Virus record (IMG/VR): IMGVR_UViG_2695420403_000017
DNA: 8,534 nucleotides
Direction: 5' to 3' (one strand)
DNA from: a virus
Taxonomy: Duplodnaviria; Heunggongvirae; Uroviricota; Caudoviricetes
Below, in pieces: positions 1 through 8,534 of the stretch (position 1 is the stretch's first letter; every line of letters begins with the position of its first letter). Under the pieces are notes generated by a model that saw only the letters and a program-made list of their open reading frames with translations, did no database searches and had not been told where the DNA came from. Made by a program: the position numbers and the translations under genes.

Positions 1-219
1 TCACATCCACATAATTTGCTGCCCTGACGGCAACGGGTGCGGCCTCACGGCGTGGACTTCTCCCGGCTTCACGATGTATCGCTGTACCGACTCATAAGTG
101 ATGAACGTGGCGCTGCAATTCACGTTCTGACACTGGTGATAACGCTCTTTTGTCGTGTCAGTGATATAGCGACTTGTACGCGCATGTGCGGCATGCTGGC
201 ATAAAGGACAATGAAACAT
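1..219 (-). CDS. ogr: Late transcription activator Ogr (Cys4 zinc-finger), 72 aa
   Basis: Minus-strand ORF with stop at 1-3. Translation from the ATG at 217-219 (MFHCPLCQHAAHARTSRYITDTTKERYHQCQNVNC...) matches my recollection of P2 Ogr, including the C-x2-C-x22-C-x4-C motif. A GGAAGAGGTG Shine-Dalgarno sits 7 nt upstream of this ATG. The ORF track extends to 282 (93 aa), but that N-terminal extension has no comparable RBS and is absent from Ogr as I recall it. Confidence 0.85.
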   Translation of the reverse strand: MFHCPLCQHAAHARTSRYITDTTKERYHQCQNVNCSATFITYESVQRYIVKPGEVHAVRPHPLPSGQQIMWM

Positions 220-253
220 CGCGAGCACCTCTTCCGGTTTTGTTGATGGTGCC

Positions 254-282
254 ATTTTAGTTAATTTATCCTTATAAAACAA
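254..282 (-). promoter_or_regulatory. Candidate sigma70 promoter for ogr in the AT-rich D-ogr spacer
   Basis: On the minus strand, TTGTTT (plus 277-282) and TAAAAT (plus 254-259) are separated by 17 bp, about 35 nt upstream of the ogr ATG. Hexamer match by eye only. Confidence 0.3.
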
Positions 283-300
283 ACAGATAAAATAAAAACA

Positions 301-1464
301 TCACTCATCATCTTCTGTTTCGTACTCCACATCAGAAAGCCTGACCTCAAGCTCCAGGGACGTCGTGAAGCCGCTATTATTCAGAAAATGTGTCACCTTA
401 GTGATTGTCCAGTCCTGCTCGTTTATGACGCGCTTAAAACCTGACACTTTGACCGGCGTTTCCGTATAAATATCTGCACGACCGGTAGCCAGGCTGATGG
501 AGAACTCCGCAACGCCCCGTTGCAGTTTATCCCACTTCGCCTGAGCGGCGCGCATGGCCTGCGCTTTTGTGGCATATACCGTGGTCAGGGCAAAAACGTT
601 GTCAGCCTCACCGGCCATGTATTCACCTTCGCGCGCTTCCGGTACTTTGGGCGCTTTCTTCTGCGTGACCGGTTTCGCTTTCGGGTGTTCCAGTGCGCGC
701 AGGTGTTTTTCTTTCTTTTTGCGCTTCAGTTTTACCTTCTGCTTTTGCGGCTTCGGGTCTTTAGTGTGTAACCACTTTGCCGTTACGCCGCTGTAGGCTC
801 CACGGTCAGCAATCGCAAAATGATGGCGGTCGCCGTCGCTGCGGGTGATGGTAATCTGCGGGATTTTTTTACCACTGGCCGTCACCCCCTGCCCCGCTTT
901 GAGAAACAGCAGTTTTCCCATTTTTACCGACACCTCACCGCCGTTGCGTTCAGCAAGACGGGTCAGGAATTTCGCATCAGACTCCTGCGACTGGTCGATG
1001 TGCGGGATTTTAATTCCTGTCAGTGACGGCGCGACACTGGCTTCCAGCCTGTTACGGGAGGCAATCGCTTCAACAATCGCACCGAGCGTGGTGTCATGCC
1101 AGGAGCCTTCCCGGCGGGAATTGAGCGTCCCGCGAAAATCCGCACTCCGGGCGCGGATGGTGACCACATCCGGCGCTCCCCGGTGTTCAACCTCATCAAC
1201 GGTAAATTTCCCTTTGCATACCAGGGCAAAACCTTTCCAGCCAATATACACCGTCAGGACAGCGCCACGAATCGGCAGCCCGACCTGCCCGTCAGCATCG
1301 TCCAGTTCAATATCAAGCTGGTCAGCCTCAAAGCCCCGGTTATCCGTCAGGGTCATGCTCATCAGACGGTCACTGATATTGCCGGTAATATCCCTGCTGT
1401 CGAGCATCAGCATGTAATCCGGCGTCAGCGTACTGCCTGCATCAAATGTCAGCGCATCCAGCAT
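301..1464 (-). CDS. D: Tail/baseplate hub protein gpD (phage late control gene D family), 387 aa
   Basis: Full ORF of 387 aa, the length I recall for P2 gpD, with recognisable sequence (MLDALTFDAGSTLTPDYMLMLDSRDITGNISDRLMSMTLTDNRGFEADQLDIELDDADGQ...). It sits immediately downstream of U and upstream of ogr as in P2. Its start codon overlaps the U stop (TAATG). Confidence 0.9.
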   Translation of the reverse strand: MLDALTFDAGSTLTPDYMLMLDSRDITGNISDRLMSMTLTDNRGFEADQLDIELDDADGQVGLPIRGAVLTVYIGWKGFALVCKGKFTVDEVEHRGAPDVVTIRARSADFRGTLNSRREGSWHDTTLGAIVEAIASRNRLEASVAPSLTGIKIPHIDQSQESDAKFLTRLAERNGGEVSVKMGKLLFLKAGQGVTASGKKIPQITITRSDGDRHHFAIADRGAYSGVTAKWLHTKDPKPQKQKVKLKRKKKEKHLRALEHPKAKPVTQKKAPKVPEAREGEYMAGEADNVFALTTVYATKAQAMRAAQAKWDKLQRGVAEFSISLATGRADIYTETPVKVSGFKRVINEQDWTITKVTHFLNNSGFTTSLELEVRLSDVEYETEDDE

Positions 1465-1943
1465 TATCCCGCCCCCGTCATACCCGTGAATCTGGTCGCC
1501 ATACTGCCAGCCTTACCGATGAGCGATTCCGCCTGTTTACCGATATCGCCATAAAGCGCGGCCAGTGATTCATCAACGCGGGTGAGTGACAGCGTAAAAT
1601 CAATTTTCCGGGGTGTGCCGTCTGCAAAGAAAATACTCCCTGTTTCACTCACCTTGCTGACGACATACATGCCGTAAATCATGCCAGTGCCATCCAGCAA
1701 CGGCCACGCCCGGCCTTCCTCTGCCATCAGCCTGAGCGTGGTCATCGTCAGCTTGCCGCCGGTCAGTTCTGGATAAAGCACACCGGCAAGCGTGATGTTT
1801 TCCTCACCCACACCGAGAAACTGGTAGGCGTCCCGTTTACCGATACGGGAATTTGACGGCCAGCGATAATCTGATTCACGCTGCATGGTCTGGTGTGGCA
1901 GCGTCTGGCGCATAAAAACAAACATACCTAACGCGAGCATCAT
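1464..1943 (-). CDS. U: Tail protein gpU, 159 aa
   Basis: 159-aa ORF between T and D, matching P2 gpU in size and position. A strong AAGGAGGTG Shine-Dalgarno lies 7 nt upstream of the ATG and overlaps the T stop codon. Confidence 0.88.
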   Translation of the reverse strand: MMLALGMFVFMRQTLPHQTMQRESDYRWPSNSRIGKRDAYQFLGVGEENITLAGVLYPELTGGKLTMTTLRLMAEEGRAWPLLDGTGMIYGMYVVSKVSETGSIFFADGTPRKIDFTLSLTRVDESLAALYGDIGKQAESLIGKAGSMATRFTGMTGAG

Positions 1944-1957
1944 TTTTCGTCACCTCC

Positions 1958-4405
1958 TTAACCGTCATGCATCATGCTGGCACGGGCGCGCGCACGTTTA
2001 TCCCGCTCGTATTTTTCGAGCGCATCCTGTAACTGGCGGTCAAGCTGTGTCCCCGGCGCAGTACCCCCCGTCAGGCTGATGTGATATTCGTTTTTACTCT
2101 GGTCCACATAAGAGCGGCCAGCCGGTGCCGTGACCGGCTGATAAGCCTGATAACCTGCATAAGAGCTGGTCGCCGGAATATAACCACCGCTGCCATACGT
2201 GGCGGCTTGAGTTCTGGCGGCGGTCTGGTCAAGTGTGTCTGACTCTTTGTTGATGACACCGAGTTTTTCCAGTACCCAGTCAATACCACTGCGCAGTTTG
2301 TTGAACGCATTAAGCGGCAGCATCAGCGCGTCAGCCAGTGCCTGCCCGAACATGACGCCCGTGTCACGGCAACGGTTCAGGGTGTCCTGGGTAGCTTTGA
2401 CCGGGGCAATCAGGTTTTTAAACCACTGCCACGCGGCCTGTAACTTTTCGCCCAGCCAGTCAAACACCGGCTTAAGTGGCGTGAACAGTTCCCCCACCGG
2501 CGCAAATGCCGCTTTCAGCCCTTCCATCACACCGCCAAAGAATGCGCTGACAGGCTCCCAGTATTTACGGATAAGCAACGCCCCGGCGACAATGGTGGCC
2601 ACCACGGCCACAACCGGCCAGCTAATCGCCCCGATGGCCGTCATAACAGCACTGCCAACCGTCGTGAAGACTGCCCCCATTGCGCCTGCTGCCGCGATGA
2701 TGGCATTGATGCCGGTGATAACCGGCCAGGCTACAAGACCAATTGCACCGATGATGCCAGTCAGCGCCAGTGCGCCACCGGCAATGAGACCAATGGTTGA
2801 CGCCAGTGATTTGTTTTTCTGTATCCAGCCGTCGAGTTTTAACACATACTTTGTGGCCGTCTGCGTGAGCTTACGCAGTGCGCCTTCCTGCTGGTCAAAC
2901 AGGTCTGTCCCCACCGCCTCATAAGCGGACTGAAACTCCTTAAAGTCACCGCCGAGGTTGTCCTGCATGATATTTACCAGCTCTTCCGTTTTACCGTCCG
3001 AGGCTTTCAGCGTGGCAGTCAGCTTATCCAGTTTTCCGCTTGCTGCCGCTGCCAGTAAAACGTTCGCTGATTTCAGTGCTTCCTCACCAAAAATGGTTTT
3101 AAGGTATTCCCCCTTCTGAGACGTTCCCAGCTTGTGTTTATCAAAGCTGGCCTGAATCTCTTTCAGAATGGTGAACAACGGACGCATATTTCCCTTTTTG
3201 TCCGAGGTTTTAACGCCAAGCTCTTTTAGTGCTTCCCATGCTTTCCCTGTCGGAGCCTGTAATCGGGTGACAACGGCACTACTACCCGTACCCGCCATTG
3301 ACCCCCTGATGTTATTGTCATGCAGCACACCTGTCATGGCCGCTGCCTGCTCAAGACTTACACCTGCCGTCCTCGCAACCGGACCGAGGTAAGTCAGTGC
3401 ATCACTGAGCCCCTGAAAATCAGCCGCCGACTTATTCATCGTTGCCGACAACACATCGCCCACATGGCTGACATCATCATTTGACAGTTGAAAGGATGCC
3501 TTGGTCCCCAGCAACAGTTGCGCGTTTTCTTCCATCGACCGCTGATTCGCCAGTGCCATATTCAGCGTGACCGGCGTTGCCGCCTGAATAGCCGCAGCAT
3601 CTCCACCCGCTTTCGCAATGATAATCTGCGCACCGGCTGCATCATCCGCCGAGGCGGCTGTGTTGTCGCCGAGCTGGCGCGCCTGTTTGCGTAGCGCGGC
3701 CATTTCGGCGGAATCTTTTGCCACACCGAGCACGGCCTGCAATTCTGAGTTTTTCTGCGCAAACTCATAACCGGGCATCAGCAGCTTAACTCCGGCCATC
3801 GTTCCCGCCGCCGCAATCCCCACACCGGCAGCGCCCACCGAGGCCATATTTCCGGCCAGTTCCTTGCCTGCCTGATAACGCTGTTTGACTGCGTTAAGTT
3901 TTGCCTGTTGCGCACTGACACGCGCCAGCGCGTCACGCTGCCGGTTAAGCTGTGCGGTGGTTTCACTGATACGGTTTTTCAGCCCTCGTTCATCATGCGC
4001 CAGATTACGGGTATTAATACCCGCCTGACTCAATTCCTGACGCTGGCGCTGTACCGACAATCTCAGGCTGTTATATTTCGCCTGTAACTCAGACGCATTT
4101 TTACGCGCGGCTTCCATTGCCTTTGCCTGTGCATTTGTCGGTCGTTCAGTATTTTTAAACTGGACAGCCAGAGCTGCGGCTTCCTGTCTGGCTTTTTTCA
4201 GTTCCTGACCAGTCACGGCGAGCTGTGCACTGGTCTTGCGAAATCCCTCAATACGGGATGCCTGACCGTTCAGCTCGCGCAGTGATTTTTGTGTGTCCCG
4301 GATATCCCCCGACAGCGACTTACTCGCTGTACGGATGGATTTAAACGGGCGGGATGCCTGGTCAACAGCCCTGAGCAATACCTGTAATTTTACATTGTTA
4401 CTCAT
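1958..4405 (-). CDS. T: Tail tape measure protein gpT, 815 aa
   Basis: 815-aa ORF, the length I recall for P2 gpT. It has an N-terminal coiled-coil-like Q/R/A/L-rich region and a central Gly/Ala-rich hydrophobic block (IGLIAGGALALTGIIGAIGLVAWPVITGINAIIAAAGAMGAV...) typical of tape measure proteins. It lies directly downstream of the E/E' chaperone pair. Confidence 0.9.
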   Translation of the reverse strand: MSNNVKLQVLLRAVDQASRPFKSIRTASKSLSGDIRDTQKSLRELNGQASRIEGFRKTSAQLAVTGQELKKARQEAAALAVQFKNTERPTNAQAKAMEAARKNASELQAKYNSLRLSVQRQRQELSQAGINTRNLAHDERGLKNRISETTAQLNRQRDALARVSAQQAKLNAVKQRYQAGKELAGNMASVGAAGVGIAAAGTMAGVKLLMPGYEFAQKNSELQAVLGVAKDSAEMAALRKQARQLGDNTAASADDAAGAQIIIAKAGGDAAAIQAATPVTLNMALANQRSMEENAQLLLGTKASFQLSNDDVSHVGDVLSATMNKSAADFQGLSDALTYLGPVARTAGVSLEQAAAMTGVLHDNNIRGSMAGTGSSAVVTRLQAPTGKAWEALKELGVKTSDKKGNMRPLFTILKEIQASFDKHKLGTSQKGEYLKTIFGEEALKSANVLLAAAASGKLDKLTATLKASDGKTEELVNIMQDNLGGDFKEFQSAYEAVGTDLFDQQEGALRKLTQTATKYVLKLDGWIQKNKSLASTIGLIAGGALALTGIIGAIGLVAWPVITGINAIIAAAGAMGAVFTTVGSAVMTAIGAISWPVVAVVATIVAGALLIRKYWEPVSAFFGGVMEGLKAAFAPVGELFTPLKPVFDWLGEKLQAAWQWFKNLIAPVKATQDTLNRCRDTGVMFGQALADALMLPLNAFNKLRSGIDWVLEKLGVINKESDTLDQTAARTQAATYGSGGYIPATSSYAGYQAYQPVTAPAGRSYVDQSKNEYHISLTGGTAPGTQLDRQLQDALEKYERDKRARARASMMHDG

Positions 4406-4825
4406 TCGTGTTTCCGCTTCGCCGGAGCGCCTTTTCGCGCCATGTGATGAGTTCGGTCAGGCTCATGGGATACAGTTCTGATGGCGGCCAGTGAAATATC
4501 ACTGCCACATCCGCCATCAGGTCATCGACCGAGAGATTTTTCGGAAACGTCACTGCACCGAGTTCGGCGACAAAAAACCGACCACCTTACCGGCCAGCGC
4601 CACAAGGTCAGGCAGTTCCAGCGCGGCGACCTCCTGCTCGGTCAGCATCGGTGCCGTCATGCGCGGCAGCACTTTAATCAGTGCATCGACTTCGGAGTTT
4701 GCGACCGCAGCCAGACTGACACCGCGCAGCGTCCCCGCACTGGGTTTCATCAGCGTGACCTGTTCGATAACCTGCTCACCACGCTTGACCGGATTGTCCA
4801 GGGTAATCACATTTTCTTTGTTCAT
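4398..4825 (-). CDS. E': Tail assembly chaperone E+E', 142-aa product of a programmed -1 frameshift
   Basis: Hand translation from the slippery site in the -1 frame gives VAELGAVTFPKNLSVDDLMADVAVIFHWPPSELYPMSLTELITWREKALRRSGNTNE, stopping at TAA (complement of 4398-4400), which overlaps the T start as ATGAGTAA. 85 aa from E plus 57 aa from E' gives 142 aa, the length I recall for P2 E+E'. Confidence 0.7.
4550..4825 (-). CDS. E: Tail assembly chaperone gpE, 91 aa
   Basis: 91-aa ORF between FII and T, ending ...KVVGFLSPNSVQ, with the slippery heptamer in its last codons. Size and position match P2 gpE. Confidence 0.85.
   Translation of the reverse strand: MNKENVITLDNPVKRGEQVIEQVTLMKPSAGTLRGVSLAAVANSEVDALIKVLPRMTAPMLTEQEVAALELPDLVALAGKVVGFLSPNSVQ
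4571..4577 (-). promoter_or_regulatory. Slippery heptamer T-TTT-TTG for the E to E' -1 ribosomal frameshift
   Basis: Minus-strand sequence GGT TTT TTG TCG reads as G-F-L-S in gpE. The run of six T followed by G is the classic -1 slip site for the tail chaperone pair, analogous to lambda G/GT. Confidence 0.7.
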
Positions 4826-4881: not shown

Positions 4882-5400
4882 TCACAGGCCGATATTGCGG
4901 CGGTGTTGCTCCAGCCGGTCGACGCCGTTCACCTTCTCAATCATGTTGATGGTGTCGATTTCGACCAGCTCCTTACCGTCCATCGTCAGCCGGAAATAGG
5001 TGCAGACCACGGAGATTTTCGACTCGGTGTCTTCTCCCTGTTTACCCTCGCCGGTGTCGATTTCTTTCTGACGTCCACGCATGACCACCTCGACGGCCAC
5101 CGTTTCGCCGGTATCGTCGCGCTGGTAAGAGCCTGCAAAACGAATCGGCACGGCATCCACACCGGTTGCGGCGTAAAGCTCCCAGATAACCGAATCCGGG
5201 AAGCCACCGAGCGACCACTCCATTGACAGCGCATCGTCATCAAGGCCGAGGTCTACCGGTGCGCTGCCGTTCATCCCCGCACCGCGATAGTTTTCGAGCT
5301 TACGGGTCAGTTTTGGCAGCGTGACGGACTTTGCAACGCCCTGATAGCTGTAGCCGTTCAGAAAGACGTTCATTAACTTGAGTTTGCGCGGCATTGCCAT
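4882..5400 (-). CDS. FII: Tail tube protein gpFII, 172 aa
   Basis: 172-aa ORF directly downstream of the sheath gene, matching P2 FII in size, position and sequence as I recall it (MAMPRKLKLMNVFLNGYSYQGVAKS...). AAGGAG Shine-Dalgarno 8 nt upstream, overlapping the FI stop. Confidence 0.9.
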   Translation of the reverse strand: MAMPRKLKLMNVFLNGYSYQGVAKSVTLPKLTRKLENYRGAGMNGSAPVDLGLDDDALSMEWSLGGFPDSVIWELYAATGVDAVPIRFAGSYQRDDTGETVAVEVVMRGRQKEIDTGEGKQGEDTESKISVVCTYFRLTMDGKELVEIDTINMIEKVNGVDRLEQHRRNIGL

Positions 5401-5412
5401 CGGTCAGGCTCC

Positions 5413-6603
5413 TTAATTGCTGTTAACCGAAGTGACCAGATTTGCCAGGTATTTATCGGTAATACGCTGGCGCAGGGTCAGGTTTTCAAGAGGAGGCACC
5501 GGGGTATAGTCGTAGTCGATATACAGTTTTCCGGCCTTGAGGGTTTCCGCATCGTTGGATTCTTCGCTGAACCAGCAGGTCGCATCCACGATATAGCCGT
5601 TTGTTTTCAGTTCACGGAATTTGGCATTAATGCCGTCAACGATGTCGCGAATCAGCGTTGCGGTGATGGGCTTGTCCACCGCCCACATGTGCGCCTCAGC
5701 CATCGTGTCGGCCAGCACCTGCGCGGTGCGGGTGTAGTTTTCAAAGAGGAACAGCGGGTCATCAGAGCAGGTACGGTTACCCCAGAATCGGAAACCGTCG
5801 CGGCGAATCAGCGTAGTGACGCCTGACTCGTTAAGCAGGTCAGCATCGGTGCCGGACTCCTGCAAATCCCAGAATACAGATGCGCTGATGCCGGTAACAC
5901 CGTTCACCCCGACATTGGACAGCGTTTTATGCCAGCCCTGCTCCTGGTCGATTTTAGCGCGCAGCCCCAGCGCACGGGCGGTGGCATACGCGGTGGCGGT
6001 GGTACTGGTGACCGTATCCCATGCGAGGAAATCCGGCCAGATGACCATCAGCTCACGCTGGCTGAAATTCTGGCGGTAGGCTTTCACCTCAGAAATGGTT
6101 TTACAGCCCCATGCGCTGATATACCCGAAAGCGCGCAGCTTCTGACAGACTGATGCCAGTGCAACAGCAACCTCTTTGGTGTCCAGTCCCGGCACACCGA
6201 GAATGCGCGGTTTAACGCCGGTAACCGACTCCGCGCCCATCAGGGCTTTCAGTCCGGTGTACTGACCGTTTTCGTCGGTGGTGCCGATAATATTGGAAAC
6301 GGTCTGCGCGAGTTTCGTTTCCTCGTCGTCGCCGGTGCCGTCTTCCACACGCACGACAACGGTGACCGGTTTTGACTGGTCGGCGATGGCCTGCAACGAT
6401 GCCGCCAGCGTGCCTTTTTTACCGGCCTTTGCAATTGCGCTCTGCACATTGGTAATCAGCACCGGTTTATTGAGGGGGAAGGTTTCCGCATCCGCATCGC
6501 TGGCCGTGCAGACCATGCCGACAATGGCAGTGGATACGGTGGAAATGACGCGGGTGCCGTCGTTAATCTCCAGCACCTGCACGCCGTGATGATAGTCACT
6601 CAT
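5413..6603 (-). CDS. FI: Contractile tail sheath protein gpFI, 396 aa
   Basis: 396-aa ORF, the size I recall for P2 FI, as first gene of the FI-FII-E-T-U-D block, with recognisable sequence (MSDYHHGVQVLEINDGTRVISTVSTAIVGMV...). GGAG Shine-Dalgarno 8 nt upstream. Confidence 0.9.
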   Translation of the reverse strand: MSDYHHGVQVLEINDGTRVISTVSTAIVGMVCTASDADAETFPLNKPVLITNVQSAIAKAGKKGTLAASLQAIADQSKPVTVVVRVEDGTGDDEETKLAQTVSNIIGTTDENGQYTGLKALMGAESVTGVKPRILGVPGLDTKEVAVALASVCQKLRAFGYISAWGCKTISEVKAYRQNFSQRELMVIWPDFLAWDTVTSTTATAYATARALGLRAKIDQEQGWHKTLSNVGVNGVTGISASVFWDLQESGTDADLLNESGVTTLIRRDGFRFWGNRTCSDDPLFLFENYTRTAQVLADTMAEAHMWAVDKPITATLIRDIVDGINAKFRELKTNGYIVDATCWFSEESNDAETLKAGKLYIDYDYTPVPPLENLTLRQRITDKYLANLVTSVNSN

Positions 6604-6634
6604 CCGTTTAACTCCGTGGTTAATGGGTGAGTGG

Positions 6635-6692
6635 TATTTTCAGTTGTGCCGGAGATGTCAGGCTATTTGTCCCGGTTGGCTAAGGGATGACA
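6635..6692 (-). promoter_or_regulatory. Candidate Ogr-dependent late promoter for the FI operon
   Basis: Minus strand TGTCATCCCTTAGCCAAC (plus 6675-6692) is a 5/6 match to the TGT-N12-ACA dyad of P2/P4 late promoters. Its centre lies about 45 bp upstream of a -10-like GAAAAT/AAAATA (plus 6635-6641), placing it near -55. The element overlaps the last codons of the invertase gene. Match by eye only. Confidence 0.3.
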
Positions 6693-7256
6693 CAATTTAT
6701 TCTTTGTCGCTGATGAGGGGAATTTTTTATAGAGCGTGGACAGGCCAATATCAAAAATCAGCGCCACACGTTGACGAGATTCCCCCGCAGCCAGCAACCG
6801 TCCGACCTGCTCCCACTCACTCGCGGTGAGTTTCGGTCGTCTGCCACCAATACGACCTTTGGCTCTGGCCGCTTCCAGCCCGGCCCGAGTCCGCTCGACA
6901 ATGAGTTCTCGCTCCATTTCAGCCAGGGCACCCATCACATGAAAGAAAAAACGCCCCATCGGCGTGCTGGTATCAATAGCATCTGTCAGGCTGCGAAAAT
7001 TAACGCCGCGTTCGCGCAGCTCCTCAACCAGAATGACCAGATGCCGCATACTACGCCCCAGCCGGTCCAGCTTCCAGACTACCAGAGTGTCACCTGCTGA
7101 TAATGTTCTGAGCAGTTTTTTCAGTCCCGGTCGGTCGGACTTCGTGCCGCTGATTTTATCCTCAAAAATCCGCTCGCATCCTGCGCACTCCAGCGCGTTA
7201 CGCTGCAATTCCGTGTTCTGGTCATTTGTCGACACGCGTACATAGCCAATAAGCAT
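6663..7256 (-). CDS. Serine DNA invertase (Pin/Gin/Hin/Cin family), about 197 aa
   Basis: N-terminus MLIGYVRVSTNDQNTELQRNAL carries the catalytic serine motif, and the C-terminus has a helix-turn-helix (GLSTLYKKF), both characteristic of Gin/Pin/Hin. Start chosen at the second ATG (7254-7256), which has an AGGGGG Shine-Dalgarno 6 nt upstream and reproduces the Gin/Pin N-terminus; the track ORF starts 2 codons earlier at 7262. The gene is adjacent to, and divergent from, a tail-fibre variable cassette. Confidence 0.85.
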   Translation of the reverse strand: MLIGYVRVSTNDQNTELQRNALECAGCERIFEDKISGTKSDRPGLKKLLRTLSAGDTLVVWKLDRLGRSMRHLVILVEELRERGVNFRSLTDAIDTSTPMGRFFFHVMGALAEMERELIVERTRAGLEAARAKGRIGGRRPKLTASEWEQVGRLLAAGESRQRVALIFDIGLSTLYKKFPSSATKNKLCHPLANRDK

Positions 7257-7283
7257 GAGCATCCCCCTGAATAAAAACCGGAG

Positions 7284-7781
7284 ATGATGCCACTTGCCCG
7301 TTATCTCTGCATTTTCATAAACGTTGGTTTGGGAGAAGGTGCTCCAGCTATTGGCGTTCCGTTCTTCTGGCCGTCCGCTGCAATGCCAAATACCGTAATC
7401 GACAGCTGGTCCAGTATGGTGTTTTTGAAGTTCAACGGGGTGAAATTTTCTGCCTCTGATTACCCTGTGCTGGCAAAAGTGTTTCCTTCGCTGGTATTAC
7501 CTGAAGCCCGCGGTGATTTCATTCGTATCTGGGATGATGGGCGAGGGGCGGACAGTGGGCGAGCATTATTAAGCTGGCAGGCAGCAACATCTTTATCGCA
7601 ATTTGGCGGTAATTATCCAGAAGGGTCCGGCCATGCGATTGCTGATTACGATGGAATATCAGCACACCAGCCAGGTTTCTCTCGATTTCAGTACACCAGT
7701 AACTCAGTAGGAGATGGTGTTAATTTTATTGCCGTCAGACCACGTAACATTGCATTTAACTTTCTGGTGAGGGCTAAATAA
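7284..7781 (+). CDS. Tail-fibre C-terminal variable cassette (Sv'-like), promoterless and probably in the silent orientation; functional frame likely begins at the crossover site near 7312
   Basis: The ORF has no credible start: GGAG abuts the first ATG with 0-3 nt spacing. Its frame runs through the candidate crossover site, and its stop overlaps the start of a downstream assembly gene (TAATG). It is divergent from and adjacent to the invertase, as in e14 stfE-pinE and the Mu G segment. The fibre-tip assignment rests on this architecture, not on recognised sequence. Confidence 0.6.
   Translation: MMPLARYLCIFINVGLGEGAPAIGVPFFWPSAAMPNTVIDSWSSMVFLKFNGVKFSASDYPVLAKVFPSLVLPEARGDFIRIWDDGRGADSGRALLSWQAATSLSQFGGNYPEGSGHAIADYDGISAHQPGFSRFQYTSNSVGDGVNFIAVRPRNIAFNFLVRAK
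7312..7337 (+). promoter_or_regulatory. Candidate 26-bp recombination crossover site (gix/hix/pix-like)
   Basis: TTTTCATAAACG-TT-GGTTTGGGAGAA has two imperfect inverted half-sites around a central dinucleotide, with the AAAC..GGTTT core and terminal TT/AA of hix/gix sites (about 16-18 of 26 against the sites as I recall them). It lies about 55 bp upstream of the invertase start and inside the fibre cassette reading frame, where constant and variable fibre parts join in Mu, P1 and e14. Confidence 0.45.
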
Positions 7782-8374
7782 TGAAACCTGTTTTTGATGA
7801 AAATGGACTGGCTACAGTGCCGGGTGATATGCGTTGTTTTTATTATGATGCAGTAACGTATGAATATACGGGCTGGTCTGATGAATATATTAATACTGGT
7901 GTAAGTATGCCCGCCTGTTCCACTGGTATTGACCCGGGCGAAAACATTCCGGGAAAAGTGGCAGTATTTACAGGTAAGGGATGGAGCCATGAAGAAGACC
8001 ATCGCAATGAGACTGTTTACTCAATCGAAAATGGTGCTGCTGTTACAGTGGATTATATCGGTGCCATCAAAAACGGTTATGTCACGCTTTCACCGTTAAC
8101 GCCATATGATAAATGGGATGGTGAGAAATGGGTGACAGATACTGAGGCACAACACGGTGCCGCAGTAGAAGCGGCAGAAGCACAGCGCCAGTCACTGATT
8201 GATGCAGCAATGGCTTCCATTAGTCCGATTCAGCTGAAATTACAGGCCGGGCGGAAACTGACGCAGGCAGAAACAACCCGGCTTAACGCTGTGCTGGATT
8301 ACATTGACGCGGTGACGGCAACAGATACCAGCACCGCGCCGGATGTCATCTGGCCTGAACTGCCGGAGGCGTAG
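7781..8374 (+). CDS. Tail fibre assembly protein (Tfa/gpG/Mu U family), 197 aa
   Basis: 197-aa ORF coupled to the fibre cassette, with the Tfa-like C-terminal motif ...[16 protein letters not shown]. It converges on a second Tfa-like gene on the opposite strand. Confidence 0.75.
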
Positions 8375-8534
8375 GCCATTCAATATCGGGTGCTGTTGAC
8401 GTATCAACACGCATCAGCAGCACACGGTATTTCTTCCATTGGGTGAGAGTTGTAGCTTCTTCATCAGTTGCGATATCAGCATCAACAGCATCCTGACGCC
8501 AGGATATTTCACTGTCAGCTTTTTCCCGTAATTG
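8346..8534 (-). CDS. Tail fibre assembly protein, second copy (3' portion only; 5' end beyond the window)
   Basis: Hand translation of the minus strand from the window edge gives ...[53 protein letters not shown], with stop TGA at the complement of 8346-8348. It shares the DTSTAPD(I/V)xWP motif with the plus-strand copy. The ORF is open to the window edge and absent from the ORF track because it is truncated. Confidence 0.6.

Follow-up and report, generated by a model that had tools for sequence, protein, structure and literature searches.

A fibre-tip and assembly-gene cassette next to a serine invertase in a P2-like prophage of Escherichia coli is very probably the parked half of an invertible tail-fibre segment

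To begin with, the stretch of viral DNA analysed here (8,534 nucleotides, IMG/VR record IMGVR_UViG_2695420403_000017, referred to as the window) belongs to a P2-like (Peduoviridae) prophage of E. coli, and its cassette at 7284-8374 is very probably the parked half of a Pin/Gin-type invertible tail-fibre segment, being unexpressed at present and becoming the C-terminus of the tail-fibre protein H after inversion. A previous reading made from the letters alone (the sequence-only reading) had placed this cassette in the opposite orientation to the tail operon, which was confirmed, as the Sv'-like ORF and tfa' were found on the plus strand, and the tail genes and the invertase on the minus strand. 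The biology involved is already known, having been established for Mu, P1, e14 and P2-like prophages, and near-identical loci have been annotated and partly studied. The locus is thus an ordinary one, since the flip-flop fibre switch is a well-known phage route to an alternate host range. The features of the window were as follows:

1-282, minus strand: ogr (matching Pfam family)
301-1464, minus strand: D (matching Pfam family)
1464-1943, minus strand: U (matching Pfam family)
1958-4405, minus strand: tape measure T (matching Pfam family)
4398-4825, minus strand: E/E' (matching Pfam family)
4882-5400, minus strand: tube FII (matching Pfam family)
5413-6603, minus strand: sheath FI (matching Pfam family)
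6663-7256, minus strand: serine DNA invertase of the Pin/Gin/Cin/Hin family (Pfam, PHROG, identity to PinE/Gin)
7284-7325, plus strand: leader in fixed DNA beyond the invertible segment (ATGs in frame at 7284 and 7287)
7284-7781, plus strand: Sv'-like ORF as called (165 aa), starting at the leader ATG
7312-7337: 26-bp crossover site of the pix/gix type (central TT at 7324-7325)
7326-7781, plus strand: Sv', parked variable C-terminal part of tail fibre H (151 aa and stop)
7781-8374, plus strand: whole tfa', tail-fibre assembly gene
7781-8092, plus strand: N-terminal domain of tfa', variable fibre-binding half (precomputed Pfam Caudo_TAP_N)
8093-8374, plus strand: C-terminal domain of tfa', conserved oligomerisation/assembly half (Pfam Caudo_TAP)
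8346-8534, minus strand: 3' part of a second assembly gene, the tfa belonging to the cassette at present attached to H (translation)

Only one crossover site was in view, as the contig ends before the second one and before the constant part of H. The second tfa, read from 8534 down to 8346, was convergent with tfa', overlapped it by 29 nt and continued past the window end, and its 3' part corresponded to the 142-aa Caudo_TAP genes of a complete-genome relative (L002) and of two independent metagenome contigs (L004 and L005). The source contig (CYDW01000020.1, assembly GCA_001283865.2) stopped at 8536, 2 nt past the window, inside the conserved C-terminal region of the second tfa and with no crossover site there; this end is probably an assembly break at a repeat common to other prophage tfa genes. 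At the other side of the invertase, only 59 nt (6604-6662) separated its stop from the sheath start, so the FI late promoter must overlap the invertase 3' end. A search for the P2 late-promoter dyad TGT-N12-ACA gave 0 matches in the whole window and, having also missed the necessary FI promoter, was uninformative.

The crossover site at 7312-7337 (composed of TTTTCATAAACG, the central TT and GGTTTGGGAGAA) was identical in all 26 positions to the e14 site located beside pinE, and fibre homology began only at this site and not at the leader. In two relatives carrying both sites (L002 and L001, 94-97% identical to the window), an imperfect inverted repeat of 30-32 nt paired it with a site inside gene H. 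The closest relative among complete genomes, E. coli fEC.1 (L002), was 97% identical over 6600-8534 and showed the layout H (373 aa), tfa, tfa', parked tip, invertase and sheath. Moreover, L004 and L005 shared 100% identity with the window along 1345 nt and 1211 nt, respectively, and located the second site some 537 nt outside the window, giving a segment of 1748 nt. In particular, the ends of L005 fell precisely on the central dinucleotides of the two sites (TT in the first, AA in the second), as expected for a unitig from a mixture of orientations, which argues for both orientations coexisting in the sample.

The window's own configuration was present in 135 complete E. coli genomes. The flipped junction was then built in silico by joining the H constant part of L002 to the window tip (955-nt query), and it was found colinear in 34 complete E. 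coli genomes, the best of which showed 97.1% identity over 100% of the query. The homology breakpoints of the flipped genomes fell within 7321-7338. Exchange at the central dinucleotide kept the frame (...LLAYLG followed across the junction by LGEGAPAIGVPFFWPS...), and the fusion ORFs of the relatives ran through ...LLAYLGLGEGAPAIG... uninterrupted. Thus, the fusion formed one continuous ORF of 427 aa in strain EC1, while in phage 500465-2 (Gemsvirus, Peduoviridae) it formed a 501-aa H protein followed by this same tfa'. That the cassette can only be expressed after inversion, as claimed from the letters alone, was therefore supported by a frame starting at the crossover site and by the flipped junction in these 34 genomes.

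According to the proposed mechanism, the segment would span about 1.75 kb, bounded by the central TT of 7312-7337 on one side and by a second site, inverted and located inside H, on the other, and would hold two convergent cassettes, each composed of a variable fibre tip and its matched Tfa chaperone. In the present orientation, it would be the other cassette that continues the constant N-terminal part of H and is expressed from the late tail-fibre operon, with Sv' and tfa' facing the wrong way and lacking a promoter. The adjacent serine invertase would cut both sites at the central dinucleotide and flip the segment, fusing Sv' in frame to H and placing the translationally coupled tfa' behind it, and the progeny would then bear a different receptor-binding tip. 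For this strain, both inversion activity and its dependence on Fis and an enhancer are presumed.

The invertase was assigned by Pfam (Resolvase, E = 8e-53, and HTH_7, E = 5.5e-13) and by PHROG ('DNA invertase', E = 1e-101), and showed 86% identity to PinE of e14 and 80% to Gin of Mu, with MLIGYVRVSTNDQ conserved. The ORF was full length and had the N-terminal motif YVRVSTNDQ. The mechanical ORF call placed its start at ATG 7262, while the true start is most likely ATG 7256 (197 aa, MLIGYVRVSTNDQ...), given the homology to Gin/Pin and the position of a GGGGG Shine-Dalgarno sequence (7263-7267). A pattern scan of the invertase 5' region detected Fis-like 15-mers at 7163-7149 and 7126-7112, with centres 37 bp apart compared to the canonical 48, and no convincing pair at the canonical distance emerged from this region.

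Regarding the parked tip, several searches identified it as a fibre tip and not as some other protein, in agreement with the sequence-only reading. The tip ORF matched tail-fibre families in PHROG (E = 2.7e-51), and its homologues (1663 cluster representatives at E ≤ 1e-3) were nearly always located at the C-terminus of proteins of 176-1490 aa. A search of the PDB with the single sequence gave only marginal matches (E of about 2e-3) and Pfam assigned no family to the ORF at E ≤ 0.01, while a profile of 36 diverse homologues matched the T4 gp37 tip 2XGF with E = 3.5e-23 over the collar domain and the terminal NIAFN.IVR strand. The motifs shared by the tip and gp37 were PIG.P..WP, YP.LA..YPS..LPD.RG and the terminal NIAFN(F/Y)(L/I)VR strand. 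An AF2 model built from the 36 diverse tips reached a pLDDT of 70, with values above 90 in the conserved N-terminal part and the last strand and of about 50 in the middle third; an AlphaFold prediction from 25 near-identical sequences (mean pLDDT of 32) was not used. Foldseek with the tip model returned 2XGF as the sole significant match in the PDB (probability 1.00, E = 2.9e-4, TM 0.41). By sequence and fold, the tip is thus a homologue of the gp37 collar domain. On the other hand, the short-fibre structure of phiTE (9CUY) also matched and was dropped as structural reference, since only residues 3-92 are modelled (PMC11972413).

The poorly modelled part coincided with an insert of about 50 residues (approximately 7581-7736) that was hypervariable in the family. 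T4 gp37 differs from the window tip in having a long needle and a head domain in place of this insert, and because the insert is positioned where gp37 has its needle and receptor-binding head, it is the likely determinant of specificity. The receptor itself cannot be read from the sequence, as already stated in the sequence-only reading, and nothing in the analysis identified it. Furthermore, gp37 relies on gp38/gp57A and not on a Caudo_TAP chaperone (PMC9608196).

In the case of Tfa', PF02413 (Caudo_TAP) was found at residues 77-196 (E = 6e-28), and the N-terminal half carried the precomputed PF28596 (Caudo_TAP_N), while a sequence search of the PDB with Tfa' returned nothing at E ≤ 1. The identity between Tfa' and TfaE was about 35% over residues 1-105 and about 96% over residues 106-197, a pattern which agrees with the two-domain Tfa (variable N-terminal and conserved C-terminal domains) described for Mu and Pam3 (PMC9608196). 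The start of tfa' overlapped the stop of Sv' (TAATG), an overlap which suggests that translation of the two genes is probably coupled.

The cassette had been described as visibly more AT-rich than the sheath, tube and tape-measure genes, which was judged by eye, and GC content and codon usage were therefore computed per gene. The G+C content of 7284-8374 was 0.483, compared to 0.556 in the tail core (D to FI), in which no window of 1091 nt fell below 0.537. Likewise, GC3 was 0.422 in the cassette and 0.629 in the core (Fisher P-value of 8.7e-13), and the synonymous usage of the cassette differed from that of the core (0 of 2000 within-amino-acid permutations), while five of the six core genes showed no difference in codon usage, and the invertase also matched the core in both GC content and codon usage (581 of 2000 permutations). 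The cassette was thus distinguishable from the core, although the claim stood only for 7338-8092 (GC of 0.464 and GC3 of 0.387), since the C-terminal domain of tfa' (8093-8374) had a GC content of 0.553 and core-like codon usage (953 of 2000). In the relative L002, the whole invertible segment had a GC content of 0.464 compared to 0.56 in the flanks, the lowest values (0.43-0.45) being those of the active cassette. Low GC as a sign of the silent state was accordingly rejected; with the active cassette of L002 being the most AT-rich, low GC marks receptor-binding modules instead.

The horizontal exchange of this receptor-binding module, which the sequence-only reading had put forward, was supported by the comparisons. 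Up to 7340, a stretch which takes in the core and the invertase, the near-isogenic pro483 and the window shared 95.9% identity; they showed almost no similarity over 7341-8092, and were again 94.9% identical from 8093; the same pattern was observed for e14, where nucleotide similarity was absent in the N-terminal domain of tfa' and reached 92.1% from 8093. Moreover, the module at 7341-8092 was found with 83-99% identity in other contexts (a Gemsvirus, e14-like phages, a Mu-like prophage context, unclassified invertase-bearing myoviruses and lambdoids), including the lambdoid siphoviruses mEp213 and mEp043, which carry the module without an invertase. The variable module was present in 460 of 5426 complete E. 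coli genomes. The inner half-site (GGTTTGGGAGAA) was the same in eight loci, as was the central TT, while the outer half-site varied with the scaffold, and the tip occurred on at least five scaffolds (P2-like, Mu-like and lambdoid among them), with the joint at the central dinucleotide in every case. The junction LGLGEGAP recurred in proteins with five different N-terminal parts. Since the inner half-site was constant while the scaffolds changed, the mobile unit was concluded to be the tip and the Tfa N-terminal domain; as delimited by the alignments, the exchanged unit 7338-8092 is exactly the AT-rich part, its recombination borders being the crossover site and the conserved Tfa C-terminal domain.

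The low GC could also be explained by constraints of the fibre-tip protein on its amino-acid composition and not by a foreign origin. Both cassettes of the segment were AT-rich, as were tips in other scaffolds, which fits such an explanation. However, the difference was found in GC3 (0.39-0.42 vs. 0.63), while GC1 and GC2 of the cassette were close to the core, synonymous usage differed under a permutation made within amino acids, and the compositional border coincided with the homology breakpoints (7340 and 8093), which makes this explanation very unlikely. Similarly, it is very improbable that the cassette is a fossil, with the switch dead in this strain (the second site lost or the invertase inactive) and the ORFs decaying and never expressed. 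A dead switch would agree with the defective state of many P2-like prophages, with the position of the second site and the H constant part beyond the window, where the source contig ends, and with the PGAP tag 'incomplete; missing N-terminus' on the corresponding ORF of relatives. Against it, the invertase was full length, with 86% identity to PinE and the YVRVSTNDQ motif, the crossover site was identical to the functional site of e14, and both ORFs of the cassette were intact. Moreover, dN/dS was about 0.1 against both parked and expressed copies (from small counts), which indicates a maintained coding sequence, and the window-identical contigs broke at both site centres, implying mixed orientation in those samples.

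Finally, the 165-aa ORF might be a stand-alone gene translated at present from ATG 7284/7287, producing a free tip (with Tfa') without a fibre shaft. The sequence-only reading had denied it a usable start, which was right only in part: in-frame ATGs do exist at 7284 and 7287, but they are located outside the segment, in the fixed DNA that separates the invertase from the crossover site, with poor Shine-Dalgarno spacing and no promoter-like site. The motif AT.ATGCCA (7284-7292), which abuts the crossover site and supplies an in-frame ATG to any parked cassette, was invariant in eight elements, from Mu to e14 to P2-like (alignment A2, comprising the window and L001, L002, L006, L008, L009, L013 and L014), and the leader peptide MMP(L/V)ARYLCIFINVGLGE was identical whichever cassette was parked. 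In addition to this invariant ATG, a GGAG lies directly upstream (7280-7283), gene callers routinely report products of 164-165 aa, and parked gp53-like tips appear as ordinary CDSs in PGAP, all in favour of a stand-alone gene. However, the GGAG was the only Shine-Dalgarno-like sequence and was spaced 0 or 3 nt from the ATG, while the Mu leader in the same alignment had none before its ATG; neighbouring transcription runs entirely on the other strand; and the product would be devoid of the H portion by which the fibre attaches to the baseplate. The scan for sigma-70-like promoters gave 0 sites in 6500-8534 compared to 2.4 expected, which is weak negative evidence. Moreover, the invariant motif is accounted for on the invertase strand, where it takes the form TGnCAT(C/G)AT: positions 7292-7284 of the minus strand (TGGCATCAT) resemble an extended -10 element located 28-36 nt upstream of the invertase start, and as TGnCATCAT sits at a sensible distance from that start, the motif is probably the extended -10 element of the invertase promoter, which was favoured as the simpler reading. 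A stand-alone gene is thus extremely unlikely. The parked cassette might also be leaky, with the leader ATG giving low-level translation of the shaft-less tip (and Tfa'), which is extremely improbable as well; if true, lysogens could, for example, mask a receptor or exclude related phages.

The preferred reading, an invertible segment with its parked half in the window, was also in line with known systems. The P segment of e14, a defective prophage of E. coli K-12 (pinE, stfE, tfaE / tfaP, stfP), in which inversion has been demonstrated by experiment (PMC4272514), has the same arrangement of invertase, site, parked tip, tfa', convergent tfa and active tip, together with the same fixed leader (MPFACYFFIFINVGLGEG), while e14 is a lambdoid remnant and not P2-like, its constant part is the short StfP, and its parked tip StfE is only 41% identical to the window tip. 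The G segment of Mu (gin, S/U, S'/U') presents identical logic and gene order, and its spacer between invertase and site also has the invariant ATGCCA, GeneMark calling the parked S' from an ATG outside G. In contrast, the tips of Mu are longer (with a variable part of about 320 aa) and showed no sequence similarity to the window tip (BLASTP E of 1.6 against S'), and no similarity between Tfa' and the Tfa of Mu was detected by phmmer. Homology to Mu S' was consequently dropped, and the name Sv', as used in the sequence-only reading, holds for position and role but not for sequence.

Among P2-like elements with an invertase located between G and FI, pro483, Gemsvirus 500465-2 and the prophages of EPEC E2348/69 have the same insertion between the fibre genes and the sheath. 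In phage 500465-2, this very tip (about 91% nucleotide identity) occupies the expressed position, pro483 differs in having another parked module at 7341-8092, and of the two P2-like loci in EPEC, one is a shufflon with three sites and three alternative termini, compared to only two cassettes here. Inversion-driven phase variation has been demonstrated by sequencing for e14 and for Mu-like and P2-like EPEC prophages, with PCR confirmation for e14 (PMC4272514), and DNA invertases and fibre swapping have been noted in this P2 hotspot (bioRxiv 10.1101/2024.10.15.618418).

Overall, the locus shows a temperate phage hedging its host range, and tip-plus-chaperone modules travelling between unrelated phages via the borders at the crossover site and the Tfa C-terminal domain. 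The practical value is small; for fibre engineering, 7338-8092 delimits a portable unit with exact borders. For annotation, such ORFs are to be taken neither as pseudogenes nor as free-standing proteins. PGAP splits the intact 427-aa H of the flipped state into two 'incomplete' pseudogene or partial pieces (L007 3153-4436 and L008 2153-3436), and in the other state labels the parked tip as a pseudogene or a free-standing CDS, while several database copies of the fusion protein carry the name 'integrase'. These labels are annotation artefacts of invertible fibre genes. The partner tip, which is the one attached to H in the orientation of the window, had in L004 (approximately 1846-1848) and L005, at a position equivalent to about 537 nt beyond the end of the window, a TAG codon compared to TGG in relatives, seven codons after the site (GFGEGAN, then stop), while the closest complete genomes (99.1%) kept an intact TGG codon at this position. 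If the genome of the window shares this TAG, the parked cassette would be its sole intact tip, and the switch may be of the on/off kind and not a choice between two hosts.
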